The notes under the pieces are model-generated. The model was not told the origin of the DNA, ran no database searches, and saw nothing but the letters and a program-made list of their open reading frames with translations. Shown in pieces: positions 19,552 through 35,475 of a stretch of 64,000 nt of DNA. Each line of letters starts with the position of its first letter. Positions within the stretch are counted from its first letter, which is position 1. Source of the stretch: a virus; the IMG/VR virus record IMGVR_UViG_3300028837_000933, positions 57,821 through 121,820 of that record. The stretch is one strand, 5' to 3'. A program made the position numbers and the translations under genes.

Positions 19552-19720
19552 TCTCTCATAACTAGGGTCTCTCCCTTGAATCACAATCGGGACGGTTGGC
19601 CTTTTCCGCGTTTCGCGGGAATTGCCAACGGTCCCTTTTGTGGTGAGAGACCCAACCGCGGAACCGTCCTATTGTGGGTCGGTTCGGTCGGGTTTCATCA
19701 CAAAAAGGGAGAGTGATACA

Positions 19721-19834
19721 ATGGAGTTGGTGGAAATGTTGGTCAATATGCAACCCGCGTTTCAGATTCTTCTGGGTGCGTTCGTGTTGTTGGTGGTTGC
19801 GGTTTGTCTGGAGTTGGTTGGTATGATGCGATAG
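19721..19834 (+). CDS. Array gene: 37-aa membrane peptide
   Basis: ATG after the repeat SD; hydrophobic. Confidence 0.65.
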   Translation: MELVEMLVNMQPAFQILLGAFVLLVVAVCLELVGMMR

Positions 19835-19995
19835 ACCAACCACCAAGACCCACAATAGAATAGAACCGAGAGACCCACAATCGGGACGGTTGGCAATTGC
19901 CAACGGTCCCTTTTGTGGTGAGAGACCCAACCGCGGAACCGTCCTATTGTGGGTCGGTTCGGTCGGGTTTCATCACAAAAAGGGAGAGTGATACA

Positions 19996-20379
19996 ATGTC
20001 AGATTATAGGTTGTATTGTGAGATTGACGAAACGGTTTTGAGGGAGTTGGTTGCCAGTATTGAAACCGTGTCAATCCGCGTGCGTGCGGAACCCAACCCT
20101 ATTCTACAATCGTTGGTTCCACTGGAGATTGTGGAATTGTCGCGGGAACGTGCGTGGTTGACAATCCATCGGATACCCGCAACCGGAACCGTCAACCGGT
20201 ATAGTCCAGCCGTCAACGTGGACGTTCCCGGTTGGGTTGACGTGGATCGGTTGGGTTTGTTGGATTGTCTGGACGGTTGGGTCGGTTGCGGGATTGTAAC
20301 CCTTTTTTCCACTCACGATGGAATAGGGTATGCTTCTGACGGTTGTTTTGACGTGGACGTTTCCGCGGAAACGTATTGA
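19996..20379 (+). CDS. Array gene: hypothetical protein
   Basis: Fills the space between two repeats exactly. Confidence 0.75.
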   Translation: MSDYRLYCEIDETVLRELVASIETVSIRVRAEPNPILQSLVPLEIVELSRERAWLTIHRIPATGTVNRYSPAVNVDVPGWVDVDRLGLLDCLDGWVGCGIVTLFSTHDGIGYASDGCFDVDVSAETY

Positions 20380-20531
20380 CCAACCACCAAGACCCACAAT
20401 AGAATAGAACCGAGAGACCCACAATCGGGACGGTTGGCCTAGGCCAACGGTCCCTTTTGTGGTGAGAGACCCAACCGCGGAACCGTCCTATTGTGGGTCG
20501 GTTCGGTCGGGTTTCATCACAAAAAGGGAGA

Positions 20532-20828
20532 GTGAGGTTCGACTACAATCCCGATGCTATTGGGACGTGTCAACGGGTTGGTATCTTGGTTCGACTATAC
20601 CACGATGGGAACCATTATCTTGTATATGACCGTTGGGACGTGATTGACGGTCAATCGCAACCCGTTTTTCTCGCGGGTTTTGGTGGTCCCGATTATACAA
20701 GAAACGGTCAATTGACCTATTCCAGTATTGACCGTGTGACGCGTTTTCTAATGCAAAACGCGGAAAAGGTTGAATTGTGGTTGACCCATCGGAACCATAT
20801 TGACGTCAAAACGCACGATCCACAATAG
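20532..20828 (+). CDS. Array gene: hypothetical protein (TYSSIDR motif)
   Basis: GTG after the repeat SD; stop lies in the next repeat. Confidence 0.65.
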   Translation: MRFDYNPDAIGTCQRVGILVRLYHDGNHYLVYDRWDVIDGQSQPVFLAGFGGPDYTRNGQLTYSSIDRVTRFLMQNAEKVELWLTHRNHIDVKTHDPQ

Positions 20829-20965
20829 AATAGAACCGAGAGACCCACAATCGGGACGGTTGGCCTAGGCCAACCGTCCCTTTTGTGGTGAGAGACCCAA
20901 CCGCGGAACCGTCCTATTGTGGGTCGGTTCGGTCGGGTTTCATCACAAAAAGGGAGAGTGATACA

Positions 20966-21403
20966 ATGTTGTTGGTTGACGTACAATTGACGGTTGTTTT
21001 CCGGAACCGTCCAGTGATGCGGGACGTGAACGGGAAACGTCAAAAAAACCGGGAACGGTCGACGGGTGATAGGCGTGGTATGATGCGGGATGAAACGTGG
21101 TTATGTCTCACGTGGAACCATGAAACCGGATTCAAGGTTGCGGATTGGACGTGGTATAGTGGTGGAAACAAACCCTATTGGAATAGGGAATATGGTTCCG
21201 GTGGTCAACGTGCGGTATATTCCTATAGGGACAATCGGTTGACCGCAAACCTAGATGACACGTGGATCACTGACTACCAACCACGAAAACCCATCACTGA
21301 CGCGTCAGTGAAACGGTTGTTTCGGGTTTGTCGAAAATACGGGATGATTGTCGCCTATCTTGGCGACGGTTGGTATACTGATTGTGGTGACGTTTCGATA
21401 TAA
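20966..21403 (+). CDS. Array gene: hypothetical protein (TDASVKRL motif)
   Basis: Between repeats. Confidence 0.75.
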   Translation: MLLVDVQLTVVFRNRPVMRDVNGKRQKNRERSTGDRRGMMRDETWLCLTWNHETGFKVADWTWYSGGNKPYWNREYGSGGQRAVYSYRDNRLTANLDDTWITDYQPRKPITDASVKRLFRVCRKYGMIVAYLGDGWYTDCGDVSI

Positions 21404-21559
21404 CCCGCATCACTGACAATAGAATAGAACCGAGAGACCCACAATCGGGACGGTTGGCCTAGGCCAACGGTCCCTTTTGTGGTGAGAGACCCAACCGCGG
21501 AGCCGTCCTATTGTGGGTCGGTTCGGTCGGGTTTCATCACAAAAAGGGAGAGTGATACA

Positions 21560-21934
21560 ATGTTGTTTTTCGTGGATCGTGATATACTCGCGGAAACGTT
21601 CTATGGTGACGAGTTGGACGATTGGGACCACGTACAGTGGAACGTCAAGTATTGGGGAGAGTTGGTTATAATTCCCTACGCAAGAATAGGTCAAAAACGT
21701 CCCGCGTTCGGTGCGTGGACTATCCCGGTTTCCGTTTTGGAGAGTGCGGAAAACGTCACAATCGATTGTATGGAGTTGGATACATTTTTGACCTATTCAA
21801 ACGTGGAAAAACCCGGTTCGGGTTGTATTGTCGCGTTCCGTTCCGATGGAGAGGGAACCGTTTCCGCGGGTATTGTACGTCAATCCCGATGGAAACCTAT
21901 ACAAGACCCGTTTTGGTTCGACATTTCACCATAG
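21560..21934 (+). CDS. Array gene: hypothetical protein
   Basis: Between repeats. Confidence 0.75.
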   Translation: MLFFVDRDILAETFYGDELDDWDHVQWNVKYWGELVIIPYARIGQKRPAFGAWTIPVSVLESAENVTIDCMELDTFLTYSNVEKPGSGCIVAFRSDGEGTVSAGIVRQSRWKPIQDPFWFDISP

Positions 21935-22096
21935 CACGCACCCACAATAGAATAGAACCGAGAGACCCACAATCGGGACGGTTGGCCTAGGCCAACGGTC
22001 CCTTTTGTGGTGAGAGACCCAACCGCGGAACCGTCCTATTGTGGGTCGGTTCGGTCGGGTTTCATCACAAAAAGGGAGAGTGAGACGGTCCAAAAA

Positions 22097-22242
22097 TGAA
22101 ACCGGTGCCGGATACGCTATTTTTCCATCGTTCCGCGATTGACGGTCCCAAAAGGAACGGGACCGAACCCGCAACCGTTGACGCGGAAAACCCGCATCGG
22201 TTGAAACCCGTGCCGGATACGCTATTTTTCCATCGTTCCGCG
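22097..22242 (+). repeat. 41-bp direct repeat pair inside one array unit
   Basis: TGAAACC(G/C)GTGCCGGATACGCTATTTTTCCATCGTTCCGCG at 22097 and 22202. Confidence 0.85.
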
Positions 22243-22400
22243 GGTTGACCAACCACCAAGACCCACAATAGAATAGAACCGAGAGACCCACAATCGGGAC
22301 GGTTGGCCTAGGCCAACGGTCCCTTTTGTGGTGAGAGACCCAACCCAACCAACCACGATCCACCAACCCAACCGCGGGAACCGTTGACGGGTTGACCAAC

Positions 22401-22548: not shown

Positions 22549-23056
22549 GAATCCGCGTCAATTCGGTTGAACGCACCCACAACACAAAAACGGGTTACAC
22601 CGTGCAAAAAATCCCGCACATTTCCGGTCAATTGACCCTTTTTTGGTGAGACCAACCAACCAAAAACAACCGGGTTGACCGATTTTTGGGTCAATCGTTC
22701 CGGTTCCTAGGTCAACGGTCCCTTTTTTGGCCAACCTGGTCGGTTTCCAACCACAACCCTTGGAGCTGGTTCCAACCCATAGCGCGAGCGTGAGGGACTT
22801 ACACCTGGTGGAATCGGGCTGGCGTTTGGAGCCGCCAGCCAAAACGGCGCTAGATTCTACACCAACCGCGGAGCGCGTGAGCGCACATCTGGCGCATCTT
22901 TTCCCACGTTTGGAGTCGATAGCACGGGGCGGTCAGCTGGCCACAGCTGGCGGTCCCTTTTCGGGTGAGAGAGTCGGTAGTCGGCTCAGGCCGCGCTAGG
23001 CTGGAATCGGTCCAGCTTTTCTACGCCGACTCACAACCACAGAGAGGGAGAGTGTC

Positions 23057-23266
23057 ATGGCATGCGGAATCCCGCTATACGCGAGCGTGGCGCTGGAATA
23101 TCCCACGTGCCCGCCAACCACAGCCGGGGACGATGGCCGCGGTTTTCCAGCGGCCGGCGAACCTGGTGACTGGCGAATTGGCGACCCGCTGGACGATGAC
23201 GAGATCGGTATCCAGATGGGTGAGCCAATCGGGGTCGAGCACCTGGCTGGTATCGTGCTGGCGTAA
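23057..23266 (+). CDS. Array gene: small acidic hypothetical protein
   Basis: After the repeat SD. Confidence 0.65.
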   Translation: MACGIPLYASVALEYPTCPPTTAGDDGRGFPAAGEPGDWRIGDPLDDDEIGIQMGEPIGVEHLAGIVLA

Positions 23267-23415
23267 CGCAAGCTGAGCATCACAACAGAAAACGAGAGAC
23301 CCGAATTGGGGCGAACCGGGACGGTCCGGTTGGTCCCTTTTCGGGTGAGAGAGCCAACCACCAACCGGGGTCGTCCCGGCTGGCCTGGTTCTCATCACCA
23401 CAGAGGGAGGGAACG

Positions 23416-23763
23416 ATGTACAGCTATTGCGATGTGGAAACCTATTGGGTGCCAGTCGAACATGGTCCAACTCTCCAGCCAATGGCCGGGATGTTCTTGG
23501 CGCCGGACGGCTGGAATGCCCGAACGGTCAAAACGCCGCGACCCCATTGGGGCGGTGAGACGCTGCTGGAATGCACCGATTGGGACAAGGCAGCCTTCCG
23601 CTTGCCAACGCGGCACATCGGCATCGAAGTCGCGATCAACGTGCGCATCACGGGCCACCGCGTCCACGTGTGGGACGGTCGCCATTGGGTGAGGACACGG
23701 ATCACGTGGGTCGGGGACTGCGAGCCGGACAGCTATAGCGGCGGCTGGCTTTGCATCCGCTAG
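23416..23763 (+). CDS. Array gene: hypothetical protein
   Basis: Between repeats. Confidence 0.75.
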   Translation: MYSYCDVETYWVPVEHGPTLQPMAGMFLAPDGWNARTVKTPRPHWGGETLLECTDWDKAAFRLPTRHIGIEVAINVRITGHRVHVWDGRHWVRTRITWVGDCEPDSYSGGWLCIR

Positions 23764-23887
23764 AACACAACAACCGAATACTCGCGAGAGACCCGAATTG
23801 GGACGGCGTGGCCTTATTCCACGTGGTCCCTTTTCGGGTGCCGGCGCCCCTGGTTCGGGCGTCGAGTACAGAGAGGGAGGGCATATC

Positions 23888-24118
23888 ATGGCAGCAGTAT
23901 CGTACATGGCGCGTTTTCACTCGGGGCGTTTGCTCCGGCTGGTCGGCAAGCTGGTCATGGTCCAGCTGGCATACGGTGTGGCCGAGGGCACGCTGTCGGT
24001 TGACGGCGAGCTGGCCAATTGCGTTTACACCGTGACCGGATCTGGCACGCATCTGGAGTTCCGCGTGGAGAAGGTGCGGGACGTGGAGTACAGCGAGCGC
24101 CTGGTGGTGCTCGTCTAG
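23888..24118 (+). CDS. Array gene: small beta-rich hypothetical protein
   Basis: Between repeats. Confidence 0.7.
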   Translation: MAAVSYMARFHSGRLLRLVGKLVMVQLAYGVAEGTLSVDGELANCVYTVTGSGTHLEFRVEKVRDVEYSERLVVLV

Positions 24119-24240
24119 CACAACAACCGAATACTCGCGAGAGACCCGAATTGGGACGGCGTGGCCTTATTCCACGTGGTCCCTTTTCGGGTGCCGGCGT
24201 CCGATCTGCTGACGCCGAGTACAGAGAGGGAGGGCATATC

Positions 24241-24624
24241 ATGGATAGCTTGGAATTGGGTGCCACGGCGGAGTTGCGCGTGCTGGTCAGGGGTTACAAG
24301 GGCCAGGACGGGCTCGATGTCCGGAAGTTCTACAATGGCAAGCCAACCAAAAAGGGTGCTTTTCTCTGCATCCCTGGACAGGCGGAGTTCGCCGTCAAGG
24401 CGCTTGGCCTGGTCCTGGCTGGCGAGAGCGCGGAAGAGGCGCTTCCCATCGATCGCGCCGCCAAGGGCACAACCAACCTGGTCGTGCGGCGCTTCGAGTT
24501 CAAGGGGATGGATGGTATCAGCATCCGGAAAGAGGGCGAGCGCTGGGGCAAGGGGATCTGGCTCAAGCTGGCTCAGGCCGAGTGGGCGTTCGGCGCGATG
24601 AAAGCCGCTCTGGCTGGCAAGTAG
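24241..24624 (+). CDS. Array gene: tandem PC4/YdbC-like ssDNA-binding protein
   Basis: Two copies of [YF]KG.DG[LI][DS][VI]RK...KG..L...QAE. Confidence 0.7.
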   Translation: MDSLELGATAELRVLVRGYKGQDGLDVRKFYNGKPTKKGAFLCIPGQAEFAVKALGLVLAGESAEEALPIDRAAKGTTNLVVRRFEFKGMDGISIRKEGERWGKGIWLKLAQAEWAFGAMKAALAGK

Positions 24625-24774
24625 CACGCATCACCACAACCGAATAGCGAGAGACCCGAATTGGGGCGAACCGGGATGTTCCGGTTGGTCCCTTTTCGGG
24701 TGAGAGAGCCAGTCACCCAACCGGGGTTGTCCCGGCTGGCCGCTGGGTCTCATCACAGAGAGGGAGGGATTGCA

Positions 24775-25446
24775 ATGGCGATGCACAAGACGGACGAGCT
24801 GTATCTGGACGCGCTGCCGCCGTTTCCACACAGCGACGAGGAGTTCTACAAGATGGAGACCACGCGGGACGTTCCGACATCGGCGCTGTGGTTCGAGCGC
24901 TGTGGTGACCATCTGGACGGTCGCAAGCTGGCAATCTGGCCACGCGAGCGGAGCGCGTGGAACGTGGTCCACAACGTCTTCTGGATGACGTTCTATCCGG
25001 ACGGCGCTGTGGTCGGCGGCTATGGCACGCGGATCGAGGGCGTGGATACGCCGTACAACTGGCGCAGTCACATCGAGCACCTGGCTCGCCGGAACGGCTA
25101 CAAGGTGACGGAGCCGGGACGGAACCGGACAATCCGGGTGGACTGGCATCCTGGTGACGTGGTGGCCGTGGTGTTCAAGTACATCGAGCGCCGCGAGACG
25201 CTGGACCAGTCGGAGTTGAACCGGCTGTACGACTACCGCCAGTTCTGGAACCCGCGGAAGGTGCGCAAGCTGTCGCTGTGGGTGGGCAGCGCGTGCCCTG
25301 GACAGCGCCAAGCTGGGCGCATAGCAACACAACAACCGAATACTCACGAGAGACCCGAATCGGGGCGGCTGGGCTTCATTCCCAGTGGCCCCTTTTCGGG
25401 TGCCGGCGCCCCTGGTTCGGGCGCCGAGTACAGAGAGGGAGAGTGA
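24775..25446 (+). CDS. Array gene: hypothetical protein that reads through the next repeat
   Basis: The TAG at 25322 before the repeat is out of frame; possible frameshift. Confidence 0.65.
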   Translation: MAMHKTDELYLDALPPFPHSDEEFYKMETTRDVPTSALWFERCGDHLDGRKLAIWPRERSAWNVVHNVFWMTFYPDGAVVGGYGTRIEGVDTPYNWRSHIEHLARRNGYKVTEPGRNRTIRVDWHPGDVVAVVFKYIERRETLDQSELNRLYDYRQFWNPRKVRKLSLWVGSACPGQRQAGRIATQQPNTHERPESGRLGFIPSGPFSGAGAPGSGAEYREGE

Positions 25447-25803
25447 ATGATGGACGTCGAGACTACGGTTTGTCGGCTCAAAGCAACGCTGGTATCCAGC
25501 GAGGGTGAGAATCTCAGCGTCAAGGCTCGCGGTGACGGAACGCTGTCGGTGACAGAGCTTGACACCAACAACGCGTTCACCACAACGCGGACGCTGGTCG
25601 GCGTGATCGTCTACGCGGCGGGCCGGAGCGTGATACACCGGGCTTCCGCGCTGGACACGCTCCGCGGACTGCGTGGCGACAAGGCGGTCAAGCTGGTGGA
25701 CGATGGCGAGGGCGCGTTGATTGGCTGGGAGTGCTCCGGCTGTCCCCATGGTGAGCACTGGCACGATGTGAGCGTGGTGCCAGCCGACATCACAACCGAA
25801 TAG
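25447..25803 (+). CDS. Array gene: hypothetical protein with a SWIM-like Cys/His cluster
   Basis: WECSGCPHGEHWH. Confidence 0.65.
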   Translation: MMDVETTVCRLKATLVSSEGENLSVKARGDGTLSVTELDTNNAFTTTRTLVGVIVYAAGRSVIHRASALDTLRGLRGDKAVKLVDDGEGALIGWECSGCPHGEHWHDVSVVPADITTE

Positions 25804-25905
25804 CGAGAGACCCGAAACGGGGCGGTTGGCCGATGGTGGCCGCGGTCCCTTTTCGGGTGCCGGCGCCTGGGGCTTAGGCGCTGGACAACAGAGAGGGAGG
25901 GTATC

Positions 25906-26286
25906 ATGCCGCACGGAATCAGTGGACTGTGTTTCGAGTTGGAAGTTGGCATATTCCGGCGAGCGTTGCTGGCCAACGTGTCGCGGAGCGTGTCGATCCT
26001 GGCTACGCACATCGGCAAGGCGCCAGTGATAATCCGGGACCTGGACTACAATCCGGGGATCGTGACGGAGCGCCGGATCGAGCGCAGCCAGATCGTGCTG
26101 TCGGTTGGTCGCATGGCTCTGGACAGCAGCAAGCTGCTGGGGTTCCTGGCCGGGATGGCCAACAGCGCACGCGTCCAGGTGGCCTACAACGCGGACAGCG
26201 AGCCGTGCATCACCGGGCTGTGCTGGGGCCAAAAGCGATGGCACACAATAGCCGACCTGGAGCCGTTCCAGTCGCCCGCCAGCTAG
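25906..26286 (+). CDS. Array gene: hypothetical protein
   Basis: Between repeats. Confidence 0.7.
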   Translation: MPHGISGLCFELEVGIFRRALLANVSRSVSILATHIGKAPVIIRDLDYNPGIVTERRIERSQIVLSVGRMALDSSKLLGFLAGMANSARVQVAYNADSEPCITGLCWGQKRWHTIADLEPFQSPAS

Positions 26287-26408
26287 ACTGGCGCACAACC
26301 GAATAGCGAGAGACCCGAATGGGGGCGAGCCGGGACGGTCCGGTTGGTCCCTTTTCGGGTGCCAGCGGCTTAGGGTTAGCCGTTGAGTACAGAGAGGGAG
26401 GGAGTAAC

Positions 26409-26732
26409 GTGAATCTCAGCATGGATACGGTATTGGACATCTGCAAGCGGTATGGCAAGCTGGGTTCGGCTGGTCAGGACGTGCTGGAGTCGGCGTTGAA
26501 CCGGGACCTGGGGTACGAGAACACAACGCCGTCCTTGGTGGAAGAGGCGCGGTCGTTCCTGGAGCTTCTGGCTGTCGAGTTCCCAGCTGAGGCTGGGGTG
26601 GCTTGTGAGGCTGAGTCCACAGCCGAGTACTGCGCCGAGTATCTGGCCAACGAACCGGAAGACGGCGAGGAGTGGGGCGAGTTGGAATGGACGGAATGGG
26701 GATTGGGCTGGAGTGGCGCGAGAGGCGGATAG
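26409..26732 (+). CDS. Array gene: acidic hypothetical protein
   Basis: GTG after the repeat SD. Confidence 0.7.
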   Translation: MNLSMDTVLDICKRYGKLGSAGQDVLESALNRDLGYENTTPSLVEEARSFLELLAVEFPAEAGVACEAESTAEYCAEYLANEPEDGEEWGELEWTEWGLGWSGARGG

Positions 26733-26877
26733 GACTGTTCATCCCTACCGTTCCCAACGGAATCACAACCGAATAGCGAGAGACCCGAAACGGGGCGGTT
26801 GGCCAACGGTGGCCAGCGGTCCCTTTTCGGGTGCCGGCGTCCGATCTGCTGACGCCGAGTACAGAGAGGGAGAGTGA

Positions 26878-27573
26878 ATGATGGAGAGCAAGAGGGAAGT
26901 AGTTCACCTGGCCCTGATGGAAACCACGTGGCCGGACGCGCCGCACATCGGGAGGTGGTCGTACACGCTTGGCGACTATGCCGGGGAGTGCAGCCAGTTG
27001 TACCCGACAGCTGACGCGTGCGATGCCGCCCTGGAAGAGCTGATGCCGAAAGCTCGCTGGGACAGGCGGGTTGTCGTCTGCTGCAAGGTCCACCACGAGA
27101 GTGCAGATGTGGACGTGGTGACCGACTACAGCATCGCGGACGGCGAGGTCATCGGCGTACACCGAGTGGAGCCAGGCGGCTGGCTGCGCAAGGTGCAGCA
27201 GCTGCTGGAGTCGGCGGTCAACGCCGACCTGGCCGAAACGGAAGTCCGTCGACAGATGCTGCAAAGCGCCCGGTGGCCACGGGCGGCGACCATCGCAAAG
27301 TTCTTGTACACCACAGACGGCGAGCAGGCGCTGTGGTTCGCCAACGCCGACCGCACACGGTTCGCGAGCGCCTCGCCGCACCACGCGCACAACGTGATGG
27401 GGCGGGCCGTCACCACGTGGCACGAGAACGGAGACGTTGACACGCACGTCTGGATGCCCAAACCGTCGCTACAGTTCTGGGTGACGGGGATGGTGCTGTT
27501 CGTCAAGGTCAACTACGATCTCGATCCGGTGAGCCGGGAAGAGGTCATGGCCTGCATCACAGCGCCGGAATAG
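26878..27573 (+). CDS. Array gene: hypothetical protein
   Basis: Between repeats. Confidence 0.75.
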   Translation: MMESKREVVHLALMETTWPDAPHIGRWSYTLGDYAGECSQLYPTADACDAALEELMPKARWDRRVVVCCKVHHESADVDVVTDYSIADGEVIGVHRVEPGGWLRKVQQLLESAVNADLAETEVRRQMLQSARWPRAATIAKFLYTTDGEQALWFANADRTRFASASPHHAHNVMGRAVTTWHENGDVDTHVWMPKPSLQFWVTGMVLFVKVNYDLDPVSREEVMACITAPE

Positions 27574-27695
27574 GCGCCAGTACAACCGAATACAGAGAGA
27601 CCCGAAACGGGACGGTTGGCCTATGGTGGTCGCGGTCCCTTTTCGGGTGCCAGCGCCAGCGGCTTAGGCGCTGAGTAACAGAGAGGGAGGGCAGT

Positions 27696-27995
27696 ATGAC
27701 GGAATACGAGAAGGCGGTCGAGCGCACGGAGCTTGCGATGTTCGAGCTGGGCGTGGACGCGGGGTTCAATGAGCACGCGTTCTGCATCGGGCGCGATCAG
27801 GGCGACACCGAGATCAAGCTGTGGAGCGTCTACACTCCGCTGGCTGGCGGCGGCAAGCGGCGCATCACAACGGTCATGGGGCGCACGGAGCTTGAGGCTC
27901 AGGACAGAGCGTGGGACACGTTGAACCGGCCGGGGCGCGTGGCAATCGCGCTCGAGTGGCGCGACATGGGTTGTCGCGTAGAACCGAAAGAGTAA
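27696..27995 (+). CDS. Array gene: hypothetical protein
   Basis: Between repeats. Confidence 0.75.
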   Translation: MTEYEKAVERTELAMFELGVDAGFNEHAFCIGRDQGDTEIKLWSVYTPLAGGGKRRITTVMGRTELEAQDRAWDTLNRPGRVAIALEWRDMGCRVEPKE

Positions 27996-28097
27996 CACGA
28001 GAGATCCGAATCGGGACGGTGGCCAATGGCCGCGGTCCCTTTTCGGGTGCCGGCGCCTGGGGCTTAGGCGCTGGACAACAGAGAGGGAGGGTGTATC

Positions 28098-28328
28098 ATG
28101 GCCGGAAACGGCAAGCCAAGTCTCCGCTATAATCGGGGGCGCCGCGTGCTTCTGGACGCACGCTCAGCGCACTTTCAGCGGACGGGGCACAAGCGCATCC
28201 ACGTGGGCTTGAACTACATCGAGTGCGAGGTCTGCAAGGCACACGCGCACCTGGATCGGTTCGCCCGGCAGCTGCTACAGCATGGCCGAGTGGGGCCGCT
28301 GTACCAGATTCAGCCAGCCGAGTTCTAG
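28098..28328 (+). CDS. Array gene: small basic protein with CxxC
   Basis: After the repeat SD; H...CEVC. Confidence 0.7.
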   Translation: MAGNGKPSLRYNRGRRVLLDARSAHFQRTGHKRIHVGLNYIECEVCKAHAHLDRFARQLLQHGRVGPLYQIQPAEF

Positions 28329-28464
28329 CATCGGCGGCGGGACAGTAGCACAGAGAGACCCGAAACGGGGCGGTTGGGGTGCCGCAGAGTCATGGTCCCA
28401 ACGGTCCCTTTTCGGGTGCCGGCGCCTGGGGCTTAGGCGCTGGACAACAGAGAGGGAGGGTATC

Positions 28465-28767
28465 ATGCGGAGAGTGTTCAAGGTCGCGGAGAAGGACGGC
28501 GACGAGATCAACGAGAAGGCGCTCCGGCTGGCCGCCAAGGCGCTCCGGCGTGAGCGTGACGGCGGTGCTCTGCTACGTGTCGGGCGGGACTACGAGCCGA
28601 TGGAAGTGGAGCGGATCAACGTTGGCACGGAGTGCCGCGGGCTGATGGGGCGCACGCTGTTCCTGGAAGTCGTCGACGGGCGCAAGCGCGTACACAAGGT
28701 AGCCGCCGAGATGGTTCGGGGCGTCTACGTCTACGGCGGGACACGGACGGTCGAGACAGTCGAGTAG
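28465..28767 (+). CDS. Array gene: hypothetical protein
   Basis: Between repeats. Confidence 0.75.
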   Translation: MRRVFKVAEKDGDEINEKALRLAAKALRRERDGGALLRVGRDYEPMEVERINVGTECRGLMGRTLFLEVVDGRKRVHKVAAEMVRGVYVYGGTRTVETVE

Positions 28768-28853
28768 AGAGATCCGAAACGGGACGGTGGCCAGCGGCTG
28801 CGGTCCCTTTTCGGGTGCCGGCGCAACACGCGCCGAGTACAGAGAGGGAGGGA

Positions 28854-29267
28854 ATGATGGAGACGCTACACTTTGCTATCGTGAGAGTCTCGCACAAGAC
28901 GGACGGCGCTGTGGAGTGGTGTGCTCTGGTCATGGTGGAGCACACGAGCGCATGGGACCGTCCAGCGCGGTTCGAGTGGCAGGGGATCTATCCCACGCTG
29001 GCCAGCCTGGAGCGTGGACTCGCCAAGGTGTACCCTGGCTCAGAGTTGGGCAAGGGCCGTGGCCTAACGTTCATGGTACACGTGACGCGCCACGACACCG
29101 ACACCACCGACCGCATCCAGCGCTATCTGCTACCGCCGCCCGATGGCCGCGAGGTGGAAGTGCCGAGTCATGGCAACGATGCCGAGATCACGATCCAGTC
29201 CTGGCTGCTGGACGAGGTCGTCCAGCGGAAGGCGCTGGCCTTCGATGCGGCGCGGAACGCGGAGTAG
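28854..29267 (+). CDS. Array gene: hypothetical protein
   Basis: Between repeats. Confidence 0.75.
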   Translation: MMETLHFAIVRVSHKTDGAVEWCALVMVEHTSAWDRPARFEWQGIYPTLASLERGLAKVYPGSELGKGRGLTFMVHVTRHDTDTTDRIQRYLLPPPDGREVEVPSHGNDAEITIQSWLLDEVVQRKALAFDAARNAE

Positions 29268-29367
29268 AGAGAGACCCGAAACGGGACGGTTGCCACCGGC
29301 AGCGGTCCCTTTTCGGGTGCCAGCGCCAGCGGCTTAGGCGCTGAGTGACAGAGAGGGAGGGAGTATC

Positions 29368-29589
29368 ATGGCTGAGGAGTTGAAACGGGCGGAGCGGGTG
29401 TTGCGGACGAAGCTGGCTCGAATGTACAGAGTCTACGGTGAGGCTGTCATCCGGAAGGTCGCGGCCGTGGAGTTCTTGGGCGTGGTGGACGGGTTCTACC
29501 AGTTCCAAGTGGAGTTCGAGCGAGAGTTGCTTCCCCAGTTCTACGAGGTGCGCTTGTACGCCAAGAGCGCCAGGGTGTACAGCGCCTAG
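29368..29589 (+). CDS. Array gene: small hypothetical protein
   Basis: Between repeats. Confidence 0.75.
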   Translation: MAEELKRAERVLRTKLARMYRVYGEAVIRKVAAVEFLGVVDGFYQFQVEFERELLPQFYEVRLYAKSARVYSA

Positions 29590-29681
29590 AGAGACCCGAG
29601 ATGGGACGGTGGCCAATGGCCGCGGTCCCTTTTCGGGTGCCGGCGCACTGCGCCGAGTACATCACAGAGAGGGAGGGTATC

Positions 29682-30449
29682 ATGGGTAGACGCGAGATGC
29701 TCAAGAGGGACGCGGGCGTCCGGTTCCTGTATCTGGTCTCCGAGAAGATTCTGGAGACCTACGAGATCAAGCACTGGCCAAGCGTCATGCGGAACCGCAA
29801 GACCAGTCTACACCGACGCCGGAACGGGACGAGCCAGCTGCTGTTCAGCTGGTCCAACGTCCAGCGGCAGTGGTACTGCGGAGCCAGGGAGTACAAGACG
29901 GTGGCCAGGGCAATGCGCGAGGTCAACGAGCGCTCAGAGCCTGGCTGGCACGCACTCCGGCAGGTCCTGCTCCACGAGTGCGCCCACGCGCTTCAGTATG
30001 AGGTGCCGAACGGGCGGACGCGGGGCAGCATCCACAACGAAGTGTTCATGGCCGAGTACCGTGCTCTGCTGGAACGCTACGATCTGGATCGGTGCCTGAC
30101 GATGGCTGGTCTCACGCTGGACAGCAAGCCGCCGTGGGAAGAGCCGAAAGTGGAAGAGCCAACCACCGCACAGACATCGTTCATCGCACCCAAACCGCAG
30201 ACAGAACTGCTCATCGGACGGATCAAGATCAAGGAAAAGGCGCAGTTCTGGTCAGCGAGACAGCAAAAGGACGGCAAGATCAACCTGTCGTTCGGCCGCA
30301 AGTACTACGCTAAGATGACGTCGACGGAGCGCCAGCTGCTGCTCGAGTACTGCATGGCCACGATGCGGAAGTCGCTATTCCGCGTGCCGATCCCGCCCGA
30401 CCTCCGCGGCCAGTACCTGGCGCTGAGGCTGCGAGTGGGCGGCTGGTAG
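29682..30449 (+). CDS. Array gene: SprT-like zinc metalloprotease domain protein
   Basis: VLLHECAHALQ...H...F (HExxH plus third His). Confidence 0.7.
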   Translation: MGRREMLKRDAGVRFLYLVSEKILETYEIKHWPSVMRNRKTSLHRRRNGTSQLLFSWSNVQRQWYCGAREYKTVARAMREVNERSEPGWHALRQVLLHECAHALQYEVPNGRTRGSIHNEVFMAEYRALLERYDLDRCLTMAGLTLDSKPPWEEPKVEEPTTAQTSFIAPKPQTELLIGRIKIKEKAQFWSARQQKDGKINLSFGRKYYAKMTSTERQLLLEYCMATMRKSLFRVPIPPDLRGQYLALRLRVGGW

Positions 30450-30549
30450 AGAGACCCGAGATGGGACGATGGCCCGGCCTGGGCTGTGGTCCCTTTTCGG
30501 GTGCCAGCGCCAGCGGCTTAGGCGCTGAGTAACAGAGAGGGAGGGCAAT

Positions 30550-30858
30550 ATGGAAACGGCGGACTTGGGGTATGGAACCGTGCTGGCGCTCAAGCCAACG
30601 GGACGGCACGCGGACGTGTTCCAGCAAGTCATCTTGATCAGCGATGGCAGCGCTGTGTTCCCGCGAGGCGAGGAGACGCGGTTCTTCGGTCTTTTCGTAG
30701 ACGACTACGAGCAGCCAACGAAGTATGGGTTGGCCAACGTGTACGTCCCGGAAGAGGCGGAAGAGCGTGTCGGTCAAGTCGAGGAAACGCAGGTGCCGAT
30801 CATGGTCGTTGATGCCGGCTTTGGCTGGCCTGGACGACTCACACCGAAGGAGGGCTGA
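30550..30858 (+). CDS. Array gene: hypothetical protein
   Basis: After the repeat SD. Confidence 0.7.
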   Translation: METADLGYGTVLALKPTGRHADVFQQVILISDGSAVFPRGEETRFFGLFVDDYEQPTKYGLANVYVPEEAEERVGQVEETQVPIMVVDAGFGWPGRLTPKEG

Positions 30859-30859: not shown

Positions 30860-31021
30860 ATGGCATTCGATCCGAGATACAGACCGCGCCCCGAGAACTG
30901 GGGCAAGCTGCACACCGCGCTCAAAGCTGGCGATGAGGCCAAGGCTGAGCGCATCCTCCGCACAATCGAGGCCGAAACCGAGCTGATGATACGCGAGGCA
31001 GAGGCGTACAAGGGCGACTAG
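30860..31021 (+). CDS. Second gene in a two-gene array unit
   Basis: Own RBS AAGGAGG; stop abuts the next repeat. Confidence 0.65.
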   Translation: MAFDPRYRPRPENWGKLHTALKAGDEAKAERILRTIEAETELMIREAEAYKGD

Positions 31022-31110
31022 AGAGATCCGAAACGGGACGGTGGCCAGTGGCCGCGGTCCCTTTTCGGGTGCCGGCGCAACACGCGCCGAGTACAGAGAG
31101 GGAGGGAGAT

Positions 31111-31521
31111 ATGGTTTTCCATGTGAAGCAGTACGTCTTGATGCGGCTGCTGTCGAATTGCCGCGTCAGGGCGCCGTGGATGGACACGATCCGTCTGCAC
31201 GCCATGCACCCGCAAGACCTACATCTGGTGAGGCTGGATCTGTTCGTGGAGGACGCGGGCGGCAACGTGGATGGTATCGGCATGATGCACACTATCGAAG
31301 AGTGCTACGACACCGTACACGTTGACAGTCCTGGCGCTGTCCTGGTCAGCTTGCACGAGCTGGGCAACGTGGTTCGTCACCACGCACCCGACCAGTACGT
31401 GACACTGGCGCTGTACGAGAAGGGCGAAGAGCGCGTCATGGTGAGCATCGGCAATGGCCATCCGAAGTATGTGGCCCGCATCGATGCGAGCACGCTCCGC
31501 ACCTTGCCAGATGCGGAGTAG
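31111..31521 (+). CDS. Array gene: beta-clamp domain I-like single-domain protein
   Basis: VHVDSPGAVLVSLHELGNVVR...YVTL resembles the DnaN N-terminal domain. Confidence 0.55.
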   Translation: MVFHVKQYVLMRLLSNCRVRAPWMDTIRLHAMHPQDLHLVRLDLFVEDAGGNVDGIGMMHTIEECYDTVHVDSPGAVLVSLHELGNVVRHHAPDQYVTLALYEKGEERVMVSIGNGHPKYVARIDASTLRTLPDAE

Positions 31522-31624
31522 TAGGAGAGACCCGAAACGGGACGGTTGCCACCGGCAGCGGTCCCTTTTCGGGTGCCAGCGCCAGCGGCTTAGGCGCTGA
31601 GTAACAGAGAGGGAGGGAACAGTC

Positions 31625-32269
31625 ATGGAGATGAAGTGGAGTCACGAGATGTCCAAGCTGACGCTGGTCATCGAGACGGAACAGGGCGCCATCACAGATC
31701 CCGATGAAGTGCTACGCGCCGCCGAGGTCATCTTGATGACGGCGGTCAGCCATCTGGAGCCGGACACGGCGCCCGAGATCGTGCAGCGCGTGATCGATCA
31801 CGTCACCACCACCAACGATGCCATCGAGAGCGGCGACTGGAGTGGCGAGGCTGGACCAGACGAGTGCGACACGTGCTACAATCTGCTGGACAGCCACGAT
31901 GGGTGTGTGTTCTGCGACCAGGACGAACCCGATCCGCCGCCACGCGAGTACCGCAAGGTCAAGCAAGGCGACACGGTGCGGTTCGCCCACAAGCTGGGCT
32001 ACGAGGTGACGGCTGTGGTGGTCGGCAAGCGGTTCTACGCACACGCAGCGGACGCGTCCAGCATCACCGTGTACAGCGCTGACCACGGCACGCTGTACGG
32101 TCTCTCGCTGGGCGCTTACGAGATTCTCGCACAGCCGGACGATGCGACCCGCGAGAAGAAGTTCGTGGAGGCGGACGAGAACTACAAGGCGCATCTGAAA
32201 CAGTACGGGATCTGGGCGGCCAGATTCGAGCAGGAGCCCGACTACCGATTCTTCGAGTGGGAGGGCTAG
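31625..32269 (+). CDS. Array gene: Zn-ribbon-containing hypothetical protein
   Basis: CDTC...CVFC. Confidence 0.7.
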   Translation: MEMKWSHEMSKLTLVIETEQGAITDPDEVLRAAEVILMTAVSHLEPDTAPEIVQRVIDHVTTTNDAIESGDWSGEAGPDECDTCYNLLDSHDGCVFCDQDEPDPPPREYRKVKQGDTVRFAHKLGYEVTAVVVGKRFYAHAADASSITVYSADHGTLYGLSLGAYEILAQPDDATREKKFVEADENYKAHLKQYGIWAARFEQEPDYRFFEWEG

Positions 32270-32368
32270 ACGAGAGACCCGAGATGGGACGGTTGCCACC
32301 GGCAGCGGTCCCTTTTCGGGTGCCAGCGTCCGATCTGCTGACGCTGAGTAACAGAGAGGGAGGGTATC

Positions 32369-32914
32369 ATGGGTAAGAGGTATCGAACGATCAACCTGGG
32401 CTGGGGCGCGGGTGAGCGCCGCTACGTCCGCCATGCGCTGGAGTCGACCGAGACCGGAATGCTCCGGCACCAGTTCAAGGTGTCAGACGAGGAGTGGGCC
32501 GCCAAGGTGAGCCCGACACCCGCCAGCGTGCGCCGCTTGCTTCGCGTGCTGGTCAAGAACGGCTGGAGCATCTGCGCCGAGGGAATGCTCAAGCCGGAAG
32601 TCGCCAAGGGCCGCGTGTGCGGCAACAACGCGCCCCGCTACGTCCACGTTGACTACAACGACTACGATGGCCGCGAGCAGCTGGTGCCGCCGCGCTGCTA
32701 CAGCCGGACACCACCGCCCTGCGTCCACGAGGGCGTCCACGTTGACCAGCCCCGCGCCGTGACGGAGTTCGAGAACGTCACCCAGGCATCCGTGGGCCGC
32801 ATCCTGGAGCTTCTGGACGAGGACGATGTGACAGTCTGGGCGGCTGTGGAGCCGTCCGTCACTCGCGTCCAGTTCCTTGGCTACGTGCCAACGGGCGAGG
32901 AAGAGGACGCTTAG
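32369..32914 (+). CDS. Array gene: hypothetical protein (two T.ASV.R motifs)
   Basis: Between repeats. Confidence 0.75.
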   Translation: MGKRYRTINLGWGAGERRYVRHALESTETGMLRHQFKVSDEEWAAKVSPTPASVRRLLRVLVKNGWSICAEGMLKPEVAKGRVCGNNAPRYVHVDYNDYDGREQLVPPRCYSRTPPPCVHEGVHVDQPRAVTEFENVTQASVGRILELLDEDDVTVWAAVEPSVTRVQFLGYVPTGEEEDA

Positions 32915-33001
32915 AGAGACCCGAAACGGGACGGTCAGCCTAGCTGGCGGTCCCTTTTCGGGTGCCGGCGCAACGCGCCGAGTACAGAGAGGGAGGGAGA
33001 T

Positions 33002-33379
33002 ATGCTGTTCACAGTGAGACAGAACTACCTGTTCCGTATGCTGGCGGATGCCCGCCGTACCGTGCCGTTCCTGGAGCGGGTCACGCTCAGCGCGGAGTAC
33101 GTTGGCAACGGACGGGCAAAGCTGACGATGACGTTTCTCGATGACGAGATGAGCTTGTCGCACAAGTTCTCGACTGAATGCACCGTGCGCATCGAAGTGG
33201 AGGGTGCGTGCAGCGCGGACGTATCGGAGCTTGCCGACTTTGTCGGCCAGTGCAAGCCGACTGAGCACATCGATGTCAGCTTGCTAGGCAGCGATGCCGG
33301 CGACCGCCAGGTGTTGGTGTCCTCTGGCGGCTACGGGAACGCGATCAAAGGCGAGCGCGTCATGCTGATGCGTGACTGA
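33002..33379 (+). CDS. Array gene: beta-clamp domain I-like single-domain protein
   Basis: MLFTVRQ..L...L...P.LERVTLSAE...LTMTFLDDEMSL...IEVEGACS...LADFV. Confidence 0.6.
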   Translation: MLFTVRQNYLFRMLADARRTVPFLERVTLSAEYVGNGRAKLTMTFLDDEMSLSHKFSTECTVRIEVEGACSADVSELADFVGQCKPTEHIDVSLLGSDAGDRQVLVSSGGYGNAIKGERVMLMRD

Positions 33380-33476
33380 GAGATCCGAAAACGGGACGGT
33401 TGGCCTAGGCCAGCGGTCCCTTTTCGGGTGCCGGCGCCCCTGGTTCACGCGCCGAGTACAGAGAGGGAGGTGTGTG

Positions 33477-33815: not shown

Positions 33816-33924
33816 GAGAGATCCGGAATCGGGCGTGTCAGTTCAACGTTAGACTGATAGGCCCGTTTTCGGGTGCCAGCGCCCGCTACCACGGGCGTTG
33901 AGTATCACAGAGAGGGAGGGTACG

Positions 33925-34128
33925 ATGGAAGGGCATGAGCATGACGACACGGACCTGTGCGCCTGTGGCGCGGATCTGCTCGAGGCCATCACCAATGGCT
34001 ACGCGCACTACGCCTACACCGAGGGCACGTTCACGATCGAATGCTACGAGTGCGGCCTGGAGATCGAGGTCGAGGCCGAGGCGCACGTCACGTTCAAGGT
34101 GACGGTTCCGAAGGAGAGTGCGACATGA
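33925..34128 (+). CDS. Array gene: small Zn-ribbon protein
   Basis: CAC...CYEC. Confidence 0.7.
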   Translation: MEGHEHDDTDLCACGADLLEAITNGYAHYAYTEGTFTIECYECGLEIEVEAEAHVTFKVTVPKESAT

Positions 34129-34487
34129 GAGAGTTTCTCAAGAGAGAGGTGAGGGGTGAGCGCCCCGCCGAGGCGCCCGATGGCTGGATCGTCTACAACG
34201 CGCCGCGTCCCATCTGGGGCCACACGAAGTGGCAAGGCGACTTTGTGACTGGCGTGTTCTACGCGGCTGTAGATCCCGAGATGGACGATGCGGACGAGAT
34301 GGTCGCCCACAACCAGCTACAGCACGCGGCCGAGCTGACGTTCATCAGCGAAGAGGAATGGCGCCGGCGCGTCGAAGAGTACGGTCGAAAGATGTCGGCG
34401 GAGTACGAGATCAACCTGGACGACTTCGAGTGGGCCGACATAGAGGCCAGCTACGCCAACTGGCTCCGGCAGGAGCACGAAACGTGA
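34125..34487 (+). CDS. Second gene in a two-gene array unit, acidic
   Basis: ATGA overlap, RBS AAGGAG. Confidence 0.7.
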   Translation: MREFLKREVRGERPAEAPDGWIVYNAPRPIWGHTKWQGDFVTGVFYAAVDPEMDDADEMVAHNQLQHAAELTFISEEEWRRRVEEYGRKMSAEYEINLDDFEWADIEASYANWLRQEHET

Positions 34488-34564
34488 GAGATCCGAACCG
34501 GGACGGCTACCCTGTCAAGGGGTGGCGGTCCCTTTTCGGGTGCCGGCGCAAGACGAGTCGCCGC

Positions 34565-34592
34565 TTGCCGTTCTGCACGTTTTGTGTATAAT
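34565..34592 (+). promoter_or_regulatory. Sigma70-type promoter embedded in the last array repeat
   Basis: TTGCCG-16 nt-TATAAT inside the loop of hairpin 2. Confidence 0.6.
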
Positions 34593-34641
34593 GGACACGG
34601 TTGGCGCGGAGCGCCGAGTAATCACAGAGGGAGGGAGAAAC

Positions 34642-34839
34642 ATGACAAGTCGCAAGTGGAGTGGAGTCGGAAAGCTAGTGCTGTACGCACTGGTCATCGC
34701 GGCCGCGGTAGCACTGTCGGTCGCGGTGGAGGGTGCCGAACGCACGGTCTCGCTGGTCGTGTTCGCCGCCATGCTCAGGACGCTTCTGCTCTTATACAGA
34801 GAGAGCGCAAAATGGGCGGAGGCGTGCGTCTATGACTAG
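34642..34839 (+). CDS. Small membrane protein
   Basis: Two hydrophobic segments. Confidence 0.65.
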   Translation: MTSRKWSGVGKLVLYALVIAAAVALSVAVEGAERTVSLVVFAAMLRTLLLLYRESAKWAEACVYD

Positions 34840-35428
34840 TGAGGAGTACGAAGAGATGCTTCGTCAGGAACAGATGGCGAGTGAACGCGAGTCCCATCGC
34901 AGCCGCTCAGGAGTGCCGGGCTTGGCCGTGGCGCTGTTCGTGGTGATCGTGATCCTAACGTTCATCAGCGCCGGCTGGCAGTACGGCTGGTTCGACAGGT
35001 TCCCGTGGCTCCCCGCAGCCTTTGCCCTGGTGGTCGCTCTGTTCCTGCTGAGCGTCTGGAAGGGCTACCGAGAGGCACAACGCGAGGCGCCGCTCGAGCC
35101 GGAACCTGGAGAGCAAGTCTGGTACTACAATCCCGACTGGAGACCAGCAGAGCCGCCAGACGCGATCCCGATGGCGGGCGGCGGGCTGCTGCTGGAGCCA
35201 GTCCAGAGTCCGTACCCCGAGTCAGAGGAAGAGCCGTTCATCGTCCAGCAAGAGGTGATAGCGGAGGGCGAGACGGTCGACCGCATAGTGGTGCTGCTGC
35301 ATGGCATAGCACCGATCAAGATCATCGTGCCGAGAGAACAGGCAGATGCAGTCATCCGACTGCTGGACCCCGACGATGTCGGTCCAGTGCAAGCAGAGAT
35401 CCGTGTCGAGACCGTCCCCGCCGACTGA
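34832..35428 (+). CDS. Membrane protein (2 TM) with acidic tail
   Basis: Overlapping start; followed by a terminator. Confidence 0.7.
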   Translation: MTSEEYEEMLRQEQMASERESHRSRSGVPGLAVALFVVIVILTFISAGWQYGWFDRFPWLPAAFALVVALFLLSVWKGYREAQREAPLEPEPGEQVWYYNPDWRPAEPPDAIPMAGGGLLLEPVQSPYPESEEEPFIVQQEVIAEGETVDRIVVLLHGIAPIKIIVPREQADAVIRLLDPDDVGPVQAEIRVETVPAD

Positions 35429-35443
35429 GGCGAGGGCGCGAGA

Positions 35444-35475
35444 AGGCCAGGGCATCCGCCCTGGCCTTTTGTTTT
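35444..35475 (+). terminator. Intrinsic terminator closing the array transcript
   Basis: AGGCCAGGGC-ATCC-GCCCTGGCCT then TTTGTTTT. Confidence 0.8.

Follow-up and report, generated by a model that had tools for sequence, protein, structure and literature searches.

Thirty same-strand copies of a two-hairpin intergenic unit punctuate the presumed early region of an uncultured phage

Introduction

It is mainly in their early regions that phages store genes of unknown nature for host takeover and counter-defence, and outside T4 the capture and uniform expression of such genes are poorly understood. In this work we analyzed a window of 64,000 nucleotides (nt), the last 64 kb of a linear 121,820-bp IMG/VR virus record (IMGVR_UViG_3300028837_000933, completeness estimate 87%), in which 30 copies of a structured intergenic unit alternate with small genes, and compared this unit with the repeated elements that it most resembles. 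In the host-transcribed early operon of T7, RNase III sites are found at about five positions between the genes as irregular hairpins of around two helical turns with an internal loop, and cleavage at these sites leaves a protective 3' hairpin. The attC sites of integrons have a core with the consensus RYYYAAC in R'' and GTTRRRY in R'.

Two further kinds of repeated element have been described in phages. In T4-type phages, promoter-early stem-loops (PeSLs) are described as an ordered series of stop codon, regulatory motif with a stem-loop, ribosome-binding site and start codon; tens of them per genome precede ORFans in the plastic early region, and recombination between the copies shuffles the genes (PMC2839356; PMC4122927). 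The start-associated and extended start-associated sequences (SAS/ESAS) of cluster K mycobacteriophages and cluster EF Microbacterium phages consist of an unusually conserved, asymmetric block of ~13 nt located 3-7 nt before the start codon, found in one orientation and at non-structural genes only, and often preceded by an inverted repeat with a variable spacer (PMC3203893; PMC7302621). Open-access literature searches returned no description of an array such as the one reported here. We consider it rather probable that its repeat is a reiterated structured 5'-leader or intercistronic RNA module of an early operon, which is also a substrate for homologous exchange.

Results

A search with the core pattern of the repeat, allowing up to two mismatches, returned 32 matches between positions 19630 and 34527 of the window, all on the plus strand, where 0.27 would be expected and none of 100 shuffles reached 32; the exact matches in the whole record, 27 in number, all lie inside the array. 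A covariance model (R1) built from 19 type B units recovered 28 full copies at E<1e-6, with bit scores of 41-108, in addition to one degenerate copy (27.6 bits, E 1e-5) and one truncated copy (23.3 bits). The total is thus 30 units of ~90-160 nt each, on the same strand, from 19578 to 34644. An earlier reading made from the sequence alone (hereafter the sequence-only reading) had counted 7 type A and 23 type B repeats over ~15 kb, and the model yields the identical count. No convincing copy was found elsewhere in the 124 kb searched (the record accounts for 121.8 kb), the best outside match being located at 46733-46809 (21.7 bits, E 5e-4). The units' conserved ribosome-binding block, but not hairpin 1, also precedes a few genes of the replication region, at 46733-46809, 54842-54872 and 58443-58473, with weak R1 scores of 10.6-21.7 bits. 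The units, in window positions, are the following.

19578..19723, plus strand: unit 1, type A, hairpin-1 tip enlarged, no purine run (R1, 40.8 bits)
19868..19998, plus strand: unit 2, type A; promoter-like site upstream at 19832-19861 (R1, promoter scan)
20412..20539, plus strand: unit 3, type A; promoter-like site at 20376-20405; no start codon in the record; Logan contigs differ at the 3' end
20838..20968, plus strand: unit 4, type A (R1)
21432..21562, plus strand: unit 5, type A (R1)
21960..22087, plus strand: unit 6, type A; promoter-like site at 21925-21953; no start codon in the record (R1, promoter scan, contigs)
22281..22331, plus strand: unit 7, type A, hairpin 1 only; promoter-like site at 22245-22274 (R1 partial match at 22288-22331, 23.3 bits)
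22918..23059, plus strand: unit 8, degenerate type B with a long hairpin 2 (R1, 27.6 bits)
23294..23418, plus strand: unit 9, type B hairpin 1 with a long, type-A-like hairpin 2 (R1)
23786..23890, plus strand: unit 10, type B (R1)
24139..24243, plus strand: unit 11, type B (R1)
24649..24777, plus strand: unit 12, type B hairpin 1 with a long, type-A-like hairpin 2 (R1)
25348..25449, plus strand: unit 13, type B; the upstream open reading frame (ORF) reads through it in the record (R1)
25805..25908, plus strand: unit 14, type B (R1)
26308..26411, plus strand: unit 15, type B (R1)
26778..26880, plus strand: unit 16, type B (R1)
27595..27698, plus strand: unit 17, type B (best R1 score, 107.5 bits)
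27999..28100, plus strand: unit 18, type B (R1)
28353..28467, plus strand: unit 19, type B, hairpin-1 tip enlarged (R1)
28767..28856, plus strand: unit 20, type B, starting within the stop codon (R1)
29269..29370, plus strand: unit 21, type B (R1)
29589..29684, plus strand: unit 22, type B, starting within the stop codon (R1)
30449..30552, plus strand: unit 23, type B, starting within the stop codon (R1)
31021..31113, plus strand: unit 24, type B (R1)
31525..31627, plus strand: unit 25, type B (R1)
32272..32371, plus strand: unit 26, type B (R1)
32914..33004, plus strand: unit 27, type B, starting within the stop codon (R1)
33378..33476, plus strand: unit 28, type B, hairpin-1 tip resembling type A (R1)
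33816..33927, plus strand: unit 29, type B, the most diverged, with compensatory changes that preserve pairing (R1)
34486..34644, plus strand: unit 30, type B, with a hairpin-2 insertion carrying a promoter-like site at 34565-34592 (R1, promoter scan)

The order of elements within a unit is a six-base purine run, hairpin 1, hairpin 2 and a ribosome-binding block, followed by a spacer of 4-8 nt and the start codon. Hairpin 1 (~20 bp) comprises an outer stem of 7-8 bp, an internal loop of 1x1 or 2x2, an inner stem of 5 bp and then a G.G mismatch kept in 27 of the 30 units, above which a tip of variable sequence forms a stem of at least ~6-8 bp, closed by a loop of 3-8 nt; hairpin 2 is short, G+C-rich and variable. 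The block is purine-rich, with ~12 nt invariant or nearly so in 22 type B units, and closes every unit that has a called gene, while a 16-nt core is invariant in 19 of the 22 aligned type B units. The type A copies are near-identical across ~130 nt, whereas the type B copies diverge in both hairpin tips. The start of a type B unit overlaps the upstream stop codon or lies within 3 nt of it in 13 of 22 cases and is 17-45 nt downstream in eight, and the remaining unit (25348) is inside the ORF that reads through it. These results uphold what the sequence-only reading had said of the repeats, namely that they usually begin at or just after the previous stop codon and end in a ribosome-binding site, that the core is nearly invariant, that proximal copies are almost identical and distal ones diverged, and that small unrelated ORFs in a one-strand array are each headed by a structured unit which supplies the ribosome-binding site.

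The covariance analysis proposed with that reading was carried out on a 28-unit alignment, in which standard pairs occupy 96.3% of 616 cells compared with 82.6% in shuffles, both partners change in 12 of 22 pairs, and none of 500 shuffles reaches any of the five measures; when the partner is slid by 1-3 columns, pairing falls to 37-56%. The covariation of the stems between the two types, also noticed beforehand, is found in the outer stem, where two pairs are switched on both sides in the six type A rows of the alignment. The hairpin-1 tips, which fold into stems in 30 of 30 units despite widely differing sequences, give support for the fold that is independent of the fitted alignment. Wobble pairs indicate the strand: 33 cells are G.U and six are A.C; read on the other strand, the G.U cells would no longer pair, which assigns the fold to the sense (plus) strand. 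R1 scores at most 24.8 bits on the reverse strand, against 41-108 in the forward direction. Because the unit is positioned between a stop codon and a ribosome-binding site, the fold is probably one of mRNA. The two strands of hairpin 1 are not equally conserved, as its paired positions in 22 type B units show 27 deviations on the 5' strand and three on the 3' strand, those on the 5' strand being nearly all transitions that retain a wobble pair.

Variants of the tip and of hairpin 2, read by eye from the unit listing, are combined as a mosaic. Taking units by their first position, the same hairpin-1 tip goes with a different hairpin 2 in 23786 and 24139, in 29269/31525 and 32272, and in 27999 and 29589; the same hairpin 2 goes with different tips in 24139 and 26778, in 25805, 27999 and 28353, and in 27595, 29269 and 30449; and a type B hairpin 1 is joined to a long type-A-like hairpin 2 in 22918, 23294 and 24649. 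Since this mosaic requires crossovers or gene conversion within the invariant core, it points to recombination between units. The absence of a visible integrase, stated earlier for the window, extends to the whole 121.8-kb record (87% complete), in which a six-frame search with PF00589 returned no tyrosine recombinase (control positive in 14 of 14 reference genomes), and six-frame searches likewise returned no serine recombinase (control 12 of 14) and no Y1 HUH transposase (control 6 of 14). The suggestion to look for a recombinase or an HUH nuclease elsewhere in the genome therefore led to none, no search for a reverse transcriptase being made. Accordingly, from the cassette system envisaged in the sequence-only reading we retain the array of structured leaders and the mosaic exchange between them, and not the dedicated acquisition machinery.

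A two-hexamer scan detected a sigma-70-like -35/-10 pair before four of the six full type A units, in a conserved upstream segment. The -10 hexamer of type A ends 6 nt 5' of the unit's first base, which is accordingly the predicted +1 and forms the 5' limit of the conserved module. Among the 23 type B units no promoter-like site was detected by the scan, save the one in the hairpin-2 insertion of unit 30 (34565-34592); the upstream promoter segment is decayed in proximal type B units, and the distal ones begin at the purine run. At the other end of the array the terminators have long T tails (T4-G-T4 and T7), and in hairpin 1 four T's are paired within the stem. The limits foreseen for the array, a -10 element and a terminator, agree with the second and third of the signals below.

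19031..19039, plus strand: extended -10-like element TGnTATAAT upstream of the array, read from the sequence and absent from the two-hexamer scan list
19546..19551, plus strand: TATAAT -10 hexamer just 5' of unit 1, without a good -35 at 16-18 nt
35445..35476, plus strand: canonical intrinsic terminator directly 3' of the last ORF, with a 9-bp G+C stem and a T4-G-T4 tail
35513..35534, plus strand: second terminator-like hairpin with a T7 tail (terminator scan)

The array occupies 19.6-35.5 kb of the window, on the plus strand, between the structural and replication modules of the phage. Minus-strand structural and packaging genes at 1-15.5 kb include a gpA-type large terminase, a prohead protease domain and a ParB-like protein, the stretch at 16.5-19.5 kb is non-coding, and plus-strand replication genes, among them those for a DnaB helicase and a beta clamp, lie 3' of the array. 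Its location between these modules, after promoter-like sites and before terminators, is as would be expected of an early region, a view that these sequence features support. The genes of the array itself, putative host-takeover or anti-defence genes according to the sequence-only reading, for which 31 ORFs of 37-255 amino acids (aa) were called, are distributed as follows.

19721..22000, plus strand: type A cassettes, ORFs 19721-19834, 19996-20379, 20493-20828, 20966-21403 and 21560-21934, of 37-145 aa
23057..35428, plus strand: type B cassettes, 26 ORFs of 65-255 aa with a G+C content at third codon positions (GC3) of 0.68-0.86; the first 13 start at 23057, 23416, 23888, 24241, 24775, 25447, 25906, 26409, 26878, 27696, 28098, 28465 and 28854, and the other 13 at 29368, 29682, 30550, 30725, 31111, 31625, 32369, 33002, 33474, 33925, 34125, 34642 and 34832

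The GC3 of the type B genes is typical of the genome. In the type A genes GC3 is ~0.5, and the region 19600-22400 has 50% G+C compared with 60-64% in the rest, where GC3 is 0.7-0.85, a composition which suggests that the type A cassettes and their unit variant came from another phage of lower G+C content. Matches to known proteins are scarce. Among 30 cassette proteins compared with Pfam, no more than four had a weak match, to the single-member families PC4-like, SprT-like, DUF2157 and holin-like, and the product of 29682-30449 contains an HExxH motif that fits the SprT-like match; none of the 30 matched PHROGs, and tblastn of three cassette proteins against cultured phages gave no match. A 231-aa cassette protein retrieved only itself among 5.8 billion proteins. 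BLAST among the cassettes detected one paralogue pair, and a paralogous family of 113-136 aa is encoded by three cassettes (31111-31521, 33002-33379 and 33474-33815), with strong E-values only to itself among 1.84 billion representatives and no match at E<=1 to PDB sequences. A likeness between these paralogues and the first domain of the beta clamp that the phage encodes was considered and dropped, its sole basis being one BLAST segment (E 0.003) that found no support in PDB sequences.

A Pfam scan of 73 other proteins identified the thymidylate synthase ThyX, DUF5131, a Dam-like methylase, ParB-like proteins, a sigma-70 region 4 protein and Mor-, Lar- and Lsr2-like domains, and neither an RNA polymerase nor an obviously relevant nuclease. 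The terminase is at most ~30% identical to those of cultured phages and ~50% identical to those of many uncultured ones, some of which were binned with Chloroflexota. Just 5' of the array, ~2.3 kb of non-coding DNA (16700-19000) is made of degenerate 10-bp phased repeats, with a base identity of 0.40-0.45 at lags of 10, 20, 30 and 40 against ~0.25-0.28 in a coding control, a strong skew of A over T (A 34%, T 13%) and, at 18209-18673, a higher-order unit of 73 bp in 6.4 copies. This stretch may correspond to iterons, to a centromere-like ParB array or to bent DNA. A ParB-like gene is located at 13129-14112 on the minus strand. Among loci of relatives, L192 contains at 1800-2300 a tandem array with a 24-bp unit near packaging genes, and L208, at 11680-11800, arrays of 8-10-bp units near packaging genes that are reminiscent of the phased-repeat stretch.

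The record is a short-read assembly, and the stretch is present as contigs in three DNA runs of one study, labelled marine sediment metagenome. For two of these runs (X1 and X2), none of the 30 bins of 18000-37000 is left uncovered by the Logan contigs, which however break at the repeats and, where two type A units end on their 3' side, disagree with the record. The contig joints 19724->20536 and 19726->22084, one of them with 12 extra letters, fall at the 3' ends of identical type A units and link a type A unit bearing a start codon to the sequence 3' of units 3 and 6. In our reading these joints reflect an ambiguous assembly graph or minor departures from the record and do not indicate rearrangements; a few bases may be missing from the record at units 3 and 6, where it has no start codon. 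ORF 24775-25446 runs through unit 13 in the record; in run X2, one contig carries 29 additional bases following 25281, which would bring a TAG at 25322 in frame if the insert is free of stops; the record is read as a 29-nt deletion variant at 25281, by population heterogeneity or assembly difference. Joints between non-adjacent type B units were not seen in the contigs, which cannot show rare forms or circles.

The unit was also sought in databases and relatives. The sequence-only reading had not recognised the repeat as a known family, and in fact Rfam gave no match in the window at the gathering threshold and, at E<=1, a single chance match (mir-128, E 0.9). Other identities tried for the unit were rejected: a ribozyme because of the variable loops and the lack of a conserved partner for tertiary pairing, an element like a miniature inverted-repeat transposable element because of the single orientation, the included ribosome-binding site and the lack of target duplications, and a tRNA-like element because ARAGORN finds none. 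Megablast of the array against 50,697 phage records gave no match. The proposed search of IMG/VR for further carriers brought little, as the exact type B core occurs in seven contigs with a single match each and a type A 18-mer in none. Among one genome per GTDB species, a type B 18-mer had seven matches, and since these are single and in unrelated taxa, the unit is not a host element of the repetitive extragenic palindromic type in those genomes. A loose hairpin-plus-core pattern, overly permissive, matched at least 119 stretches of metagenome contigs; each of the 80 stretches listed has a single match, and the loci compared with the genome showed no more than one similarity to it, short and unrelated.

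Relatives were not found with peptide patterns derived from the terminase on its own, and a terminase profile (26 homologues) assembled 80 loci with terminases 43-53% identical; the collections searched contain no close relative in which cassette order could be compared. R1 had no match at E<=1 in these loci (983 kb), and in 18 whole relative records its matches were at chance level only (best E 0.03). The largest relative, G001, shares only four distinct genes at E<1e-8; the matches comprise five ORF fragments, of which two lie at the terminase locus on opposite strands. No array of comparable scale emerged from a k-mer screen of 12 whole relatives, which did bring out a six-copy unit in G012 and a 16-bp palindrome that occurs 6-8 times in G012 and G010.

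Discussion

According to the reading that we favour, some 30 early genes would be transcribed one way by the host RNA polymerase, each behind a cis-acting RNA module. In type A this module would follow its own sigma-70-type promoter, the first transcribed base being the first base of the unit, and in type B, where the promoter is decayed or absent, the genes would share one message of ~12.5 kb ending at the two canonical terminators. The RNA would fold into hairpins 1 and 2 and leave the near-invariant ribosome-binding block single-stranded. Such a module would punctuate the message: hairpin 1 may be the recognition site of an RNase III-type double-strand nuclease or of a protein, and also a protective 3' hairpin for the upstream gene, hairpin 2 may be a protective 5' hairpin, and the strong block would offer every foreign gene an equal, efficient and insulated translation start. 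In addition, 90-130 nt recurring 30 times in direct orientation would be crossover points at which homologous recombination could shuffle, delete and swap cassettes.

Several observations weigh against this reading. Two of the six type A units lack a good -35, and the promoter matches are to the consensus only. The runs holding the stretch are DNA only, which makes start, cleavage and effects on stability an inference, and no phage RNase III was found in a six-frame search of the 121.8-kb record (control 8 of 14). The order and fine sequence of the type A part rest on the short-read record. As for the fold, the alignment used for the pair counts was fitted to the covariance model, the units are related by descent, so that the shuffle control is not a probability, and most of the both-sided changes in hairpin 1 stem from the single split between type A and type B. 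The 3' strand of hairpin 1 is almost invariant, which a plain protective hairpin does not need, so some factor reads this strand or pairs with it. Finally, no relative carries the unit among the collections searched, and conservation across lineages is not demonstrable.

The unequal conservation of the two strands of hairpin 1 would be accounted for by a translational switch, in which the 3' strand is an anti-ribosome-binding-site sequence masked by the 5' strand; upon removal of the 5' strand by a factor, a nuclease or a ribosome, the 3' strand would pair with the block across hairpin 2, and the early genes would be shut off together. This refines the RNA-module reading and does not exclude an RNA module. 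In folding predictions with the first 22 nt forced to be unpaired, the core strand pairs with the block in 19 of 19 standard type B units, and the mean unpaired probability of the block drops from 0.76 to 0.20, compared with 0.46 when the 16-nt core is shuffled; in 11 of the 19 units none of 30 core shuffles is as low as the real core. Nevertheless, the 19 units share core and block and are in effect one observation, 33 of 570 shuffles (~6%) do as well, and a pyrimidine run pairs with any purine-rich ribosome-binding site. The fold with hairpin 1 is also predicted to be far more stable (~-50 vs -38 kcal/mol for whole units), the opening made by a ribosome at the stop codon would, judging from footprint sizes, be confined to the outer stem, and no trigger was identified. 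We therefore regard the switch as rather unlikely. A more ambitious version, in which a three-part RNA switch before every early gene is at the same time a recombinase-free capture point, would amount to an integrase-free, RNA-defined gene-cassette system and is, in our opinion, a doubtful proposition; if it were true, one factor cutting or binding hairpin 1 could process, and later silence, ~30 unrelated genes at once.

Hairpin 1 might instead act in transcription, as a PeSL-like attenuator whose inner part and four U's partly terminate after each gene, an arrangement that would give a falling gradient of expression or need a phage antiterminator. A terminator scan does flag most units as a G+C stem with a T-rich tail (45 sites vs 17.2 expected), and the PeSL stem-loops have been shown to terminate (PMC2839356). 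However, the U run here has only four members, C and G's come next, and all predicted folds pair the run with the 5' strand, the real terminators of the array look different, and 23 promoter-less units in series would leave almost no distal expression. In type A the hairpin lies just 3' of the predicted start, so that it is not expected to be an efficient terminator, which would kill its own transcript; both the paired T's and this position argue against efficient termination at hairpin 1, and attenuation appears quite unlikely. It is very unlikely that the repeats are sites on duplex DNA for a phage or host protein that silences or times the region, in the manner of the stoperators of cluster A mycobacteriophages or of the ESAS proposal. 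The invariance of the 16-nt core and its strictly single orientation would suit such sites, the genome has several helix-turn-helix, ParB-like, Mor-like and Lsr2-like DNA binders, and DNA binding was preferred by the ESAS authors for their inverted repeats (PMC3203893); but compensatory and wobble changes preserve both hairpins and the tips vary in sequence and not in pairing, none of which a duplex needs, and the ESAS repeats, unlike these, did not covary. An integron-like site-specific system, with hairpin 1 as an attC-like folded site for a dedicated recombinase, would match the topology (conserved outer stem, small unpaired spacer, conserved inner stem, variable tip), the single, unrelated, mostly promoter-less ORFs and the mosaic of tips and hairpins 2, but is extremely improbable in view of the lack of tyrosine and serine recombinases and of a Y1 HUH enzyme in the 121.8 kb (87% complete), of wobble pairs that favour the top strand when attC acts via the bottom strand, of irregularities that are symmetric mismatches or loops and never extrahelical bulged bases, of a second hairpin and a ribosome-binding site that attC does not have, and of contigs without joints between non-adjacent type B units, although rare forms are invisible in contigs.

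If the repeat is indeed an RNA module, it is a new candidate cis-regulatory RNA motif without an Rfam family and would represent a compact natural part composed of insulator plus ribosome-binding site, akin to those built by hand in synthetic biology. The array may also provide a clean test bed for asking, in phages other than the T4-like ones, if cassette exchange is driven by repeated regulatory modules. The weight of these considerations is limited by the single uncultured genome on which they rest, the mechanism beyond fold and strand being inferred.

Among the systems described, the PeSLs are the closest in layout and setting, and like them the type A units have a sigma-70-like promoter. 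The units place a stem-loop after the stop codon of one gene and ahead of the ribosome-binding site and start codon of the next, as PeSLs do. For PeSL mini-circles, outward-facing PCR has been used. In contrast to the promoter found in each PeSL motif, a promoter-like site accompanies four of the six full type A units and none of the 23 of type B, apart from the insertion in unit 30. In addition, the stem-loop lies here downstream of the promoter and not within or before it, and a conserved, covarying two-hairpin unit of ~100 nt in an unbroken array replaces the loose composite of the PeSLs; with its gpA-type terminase, this phage is not T4-like. The T7 sites share with hairpin 1 the irregular ~20-bp hairpin with an internal loop between cistrons, by analogy with which cleavage may be envisaged here, and differ in number (about five vs 30) and in having no sequence in common with it. 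The likeness to attC resides in an imperfect hairpin, conserved in its outer and inner stems and variable at the tip, after each promoter-less cassette of a one-orientation array. The outer stem, rich in pyrimidines and then in A like R'', fits the attC consensus inexactly, and the units differ from attC in the lack of an integrase, the sense-strand fold, the absence of extrahelical bases and the additional hairpin and ribosome-binding site.

By analogy with the ~13-nt block of SAS/ESAS, 22 type B units share ~12 fully or nearly invariant nt at a distance of 4-8 nt from the start codon. The published SAS/ESAS consensus is unrelated in sequence to the block found here (PMC3203893), the 11-19 scattered copies described there contrast with 30 contiguous ones, and the second hairpin is particular to the present units. 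Moreover, the ESAS authors saw no support for RNA pairing, whereas the repeats of this array covary and use G.U pairs (PMC3203893). A parallel in a distant relative is provided by G012 (locus L162, 1500-6230, equal to L207; record positions 27955-32663), whose terminase is ~50% identical and which contains, within ~5 kb, six same-strand intergenic units, each built of one variable and one further hairpin together with a conserved linker and, a few nt short of the start codon, a conserved ribosome-binding block. Those units are unrelated in sequence, with no R1 match, and number six copies only; a general design of two hairpins and a ribosome-binding block may thus recur in this group of uncultured phages. 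Taken together, the unit is akin in role to PeSL and SAS/ESAS and a member of neither, and the array is best read as belonging to the class of phage intergenic regulatory cassettes and not as an integron-like system.

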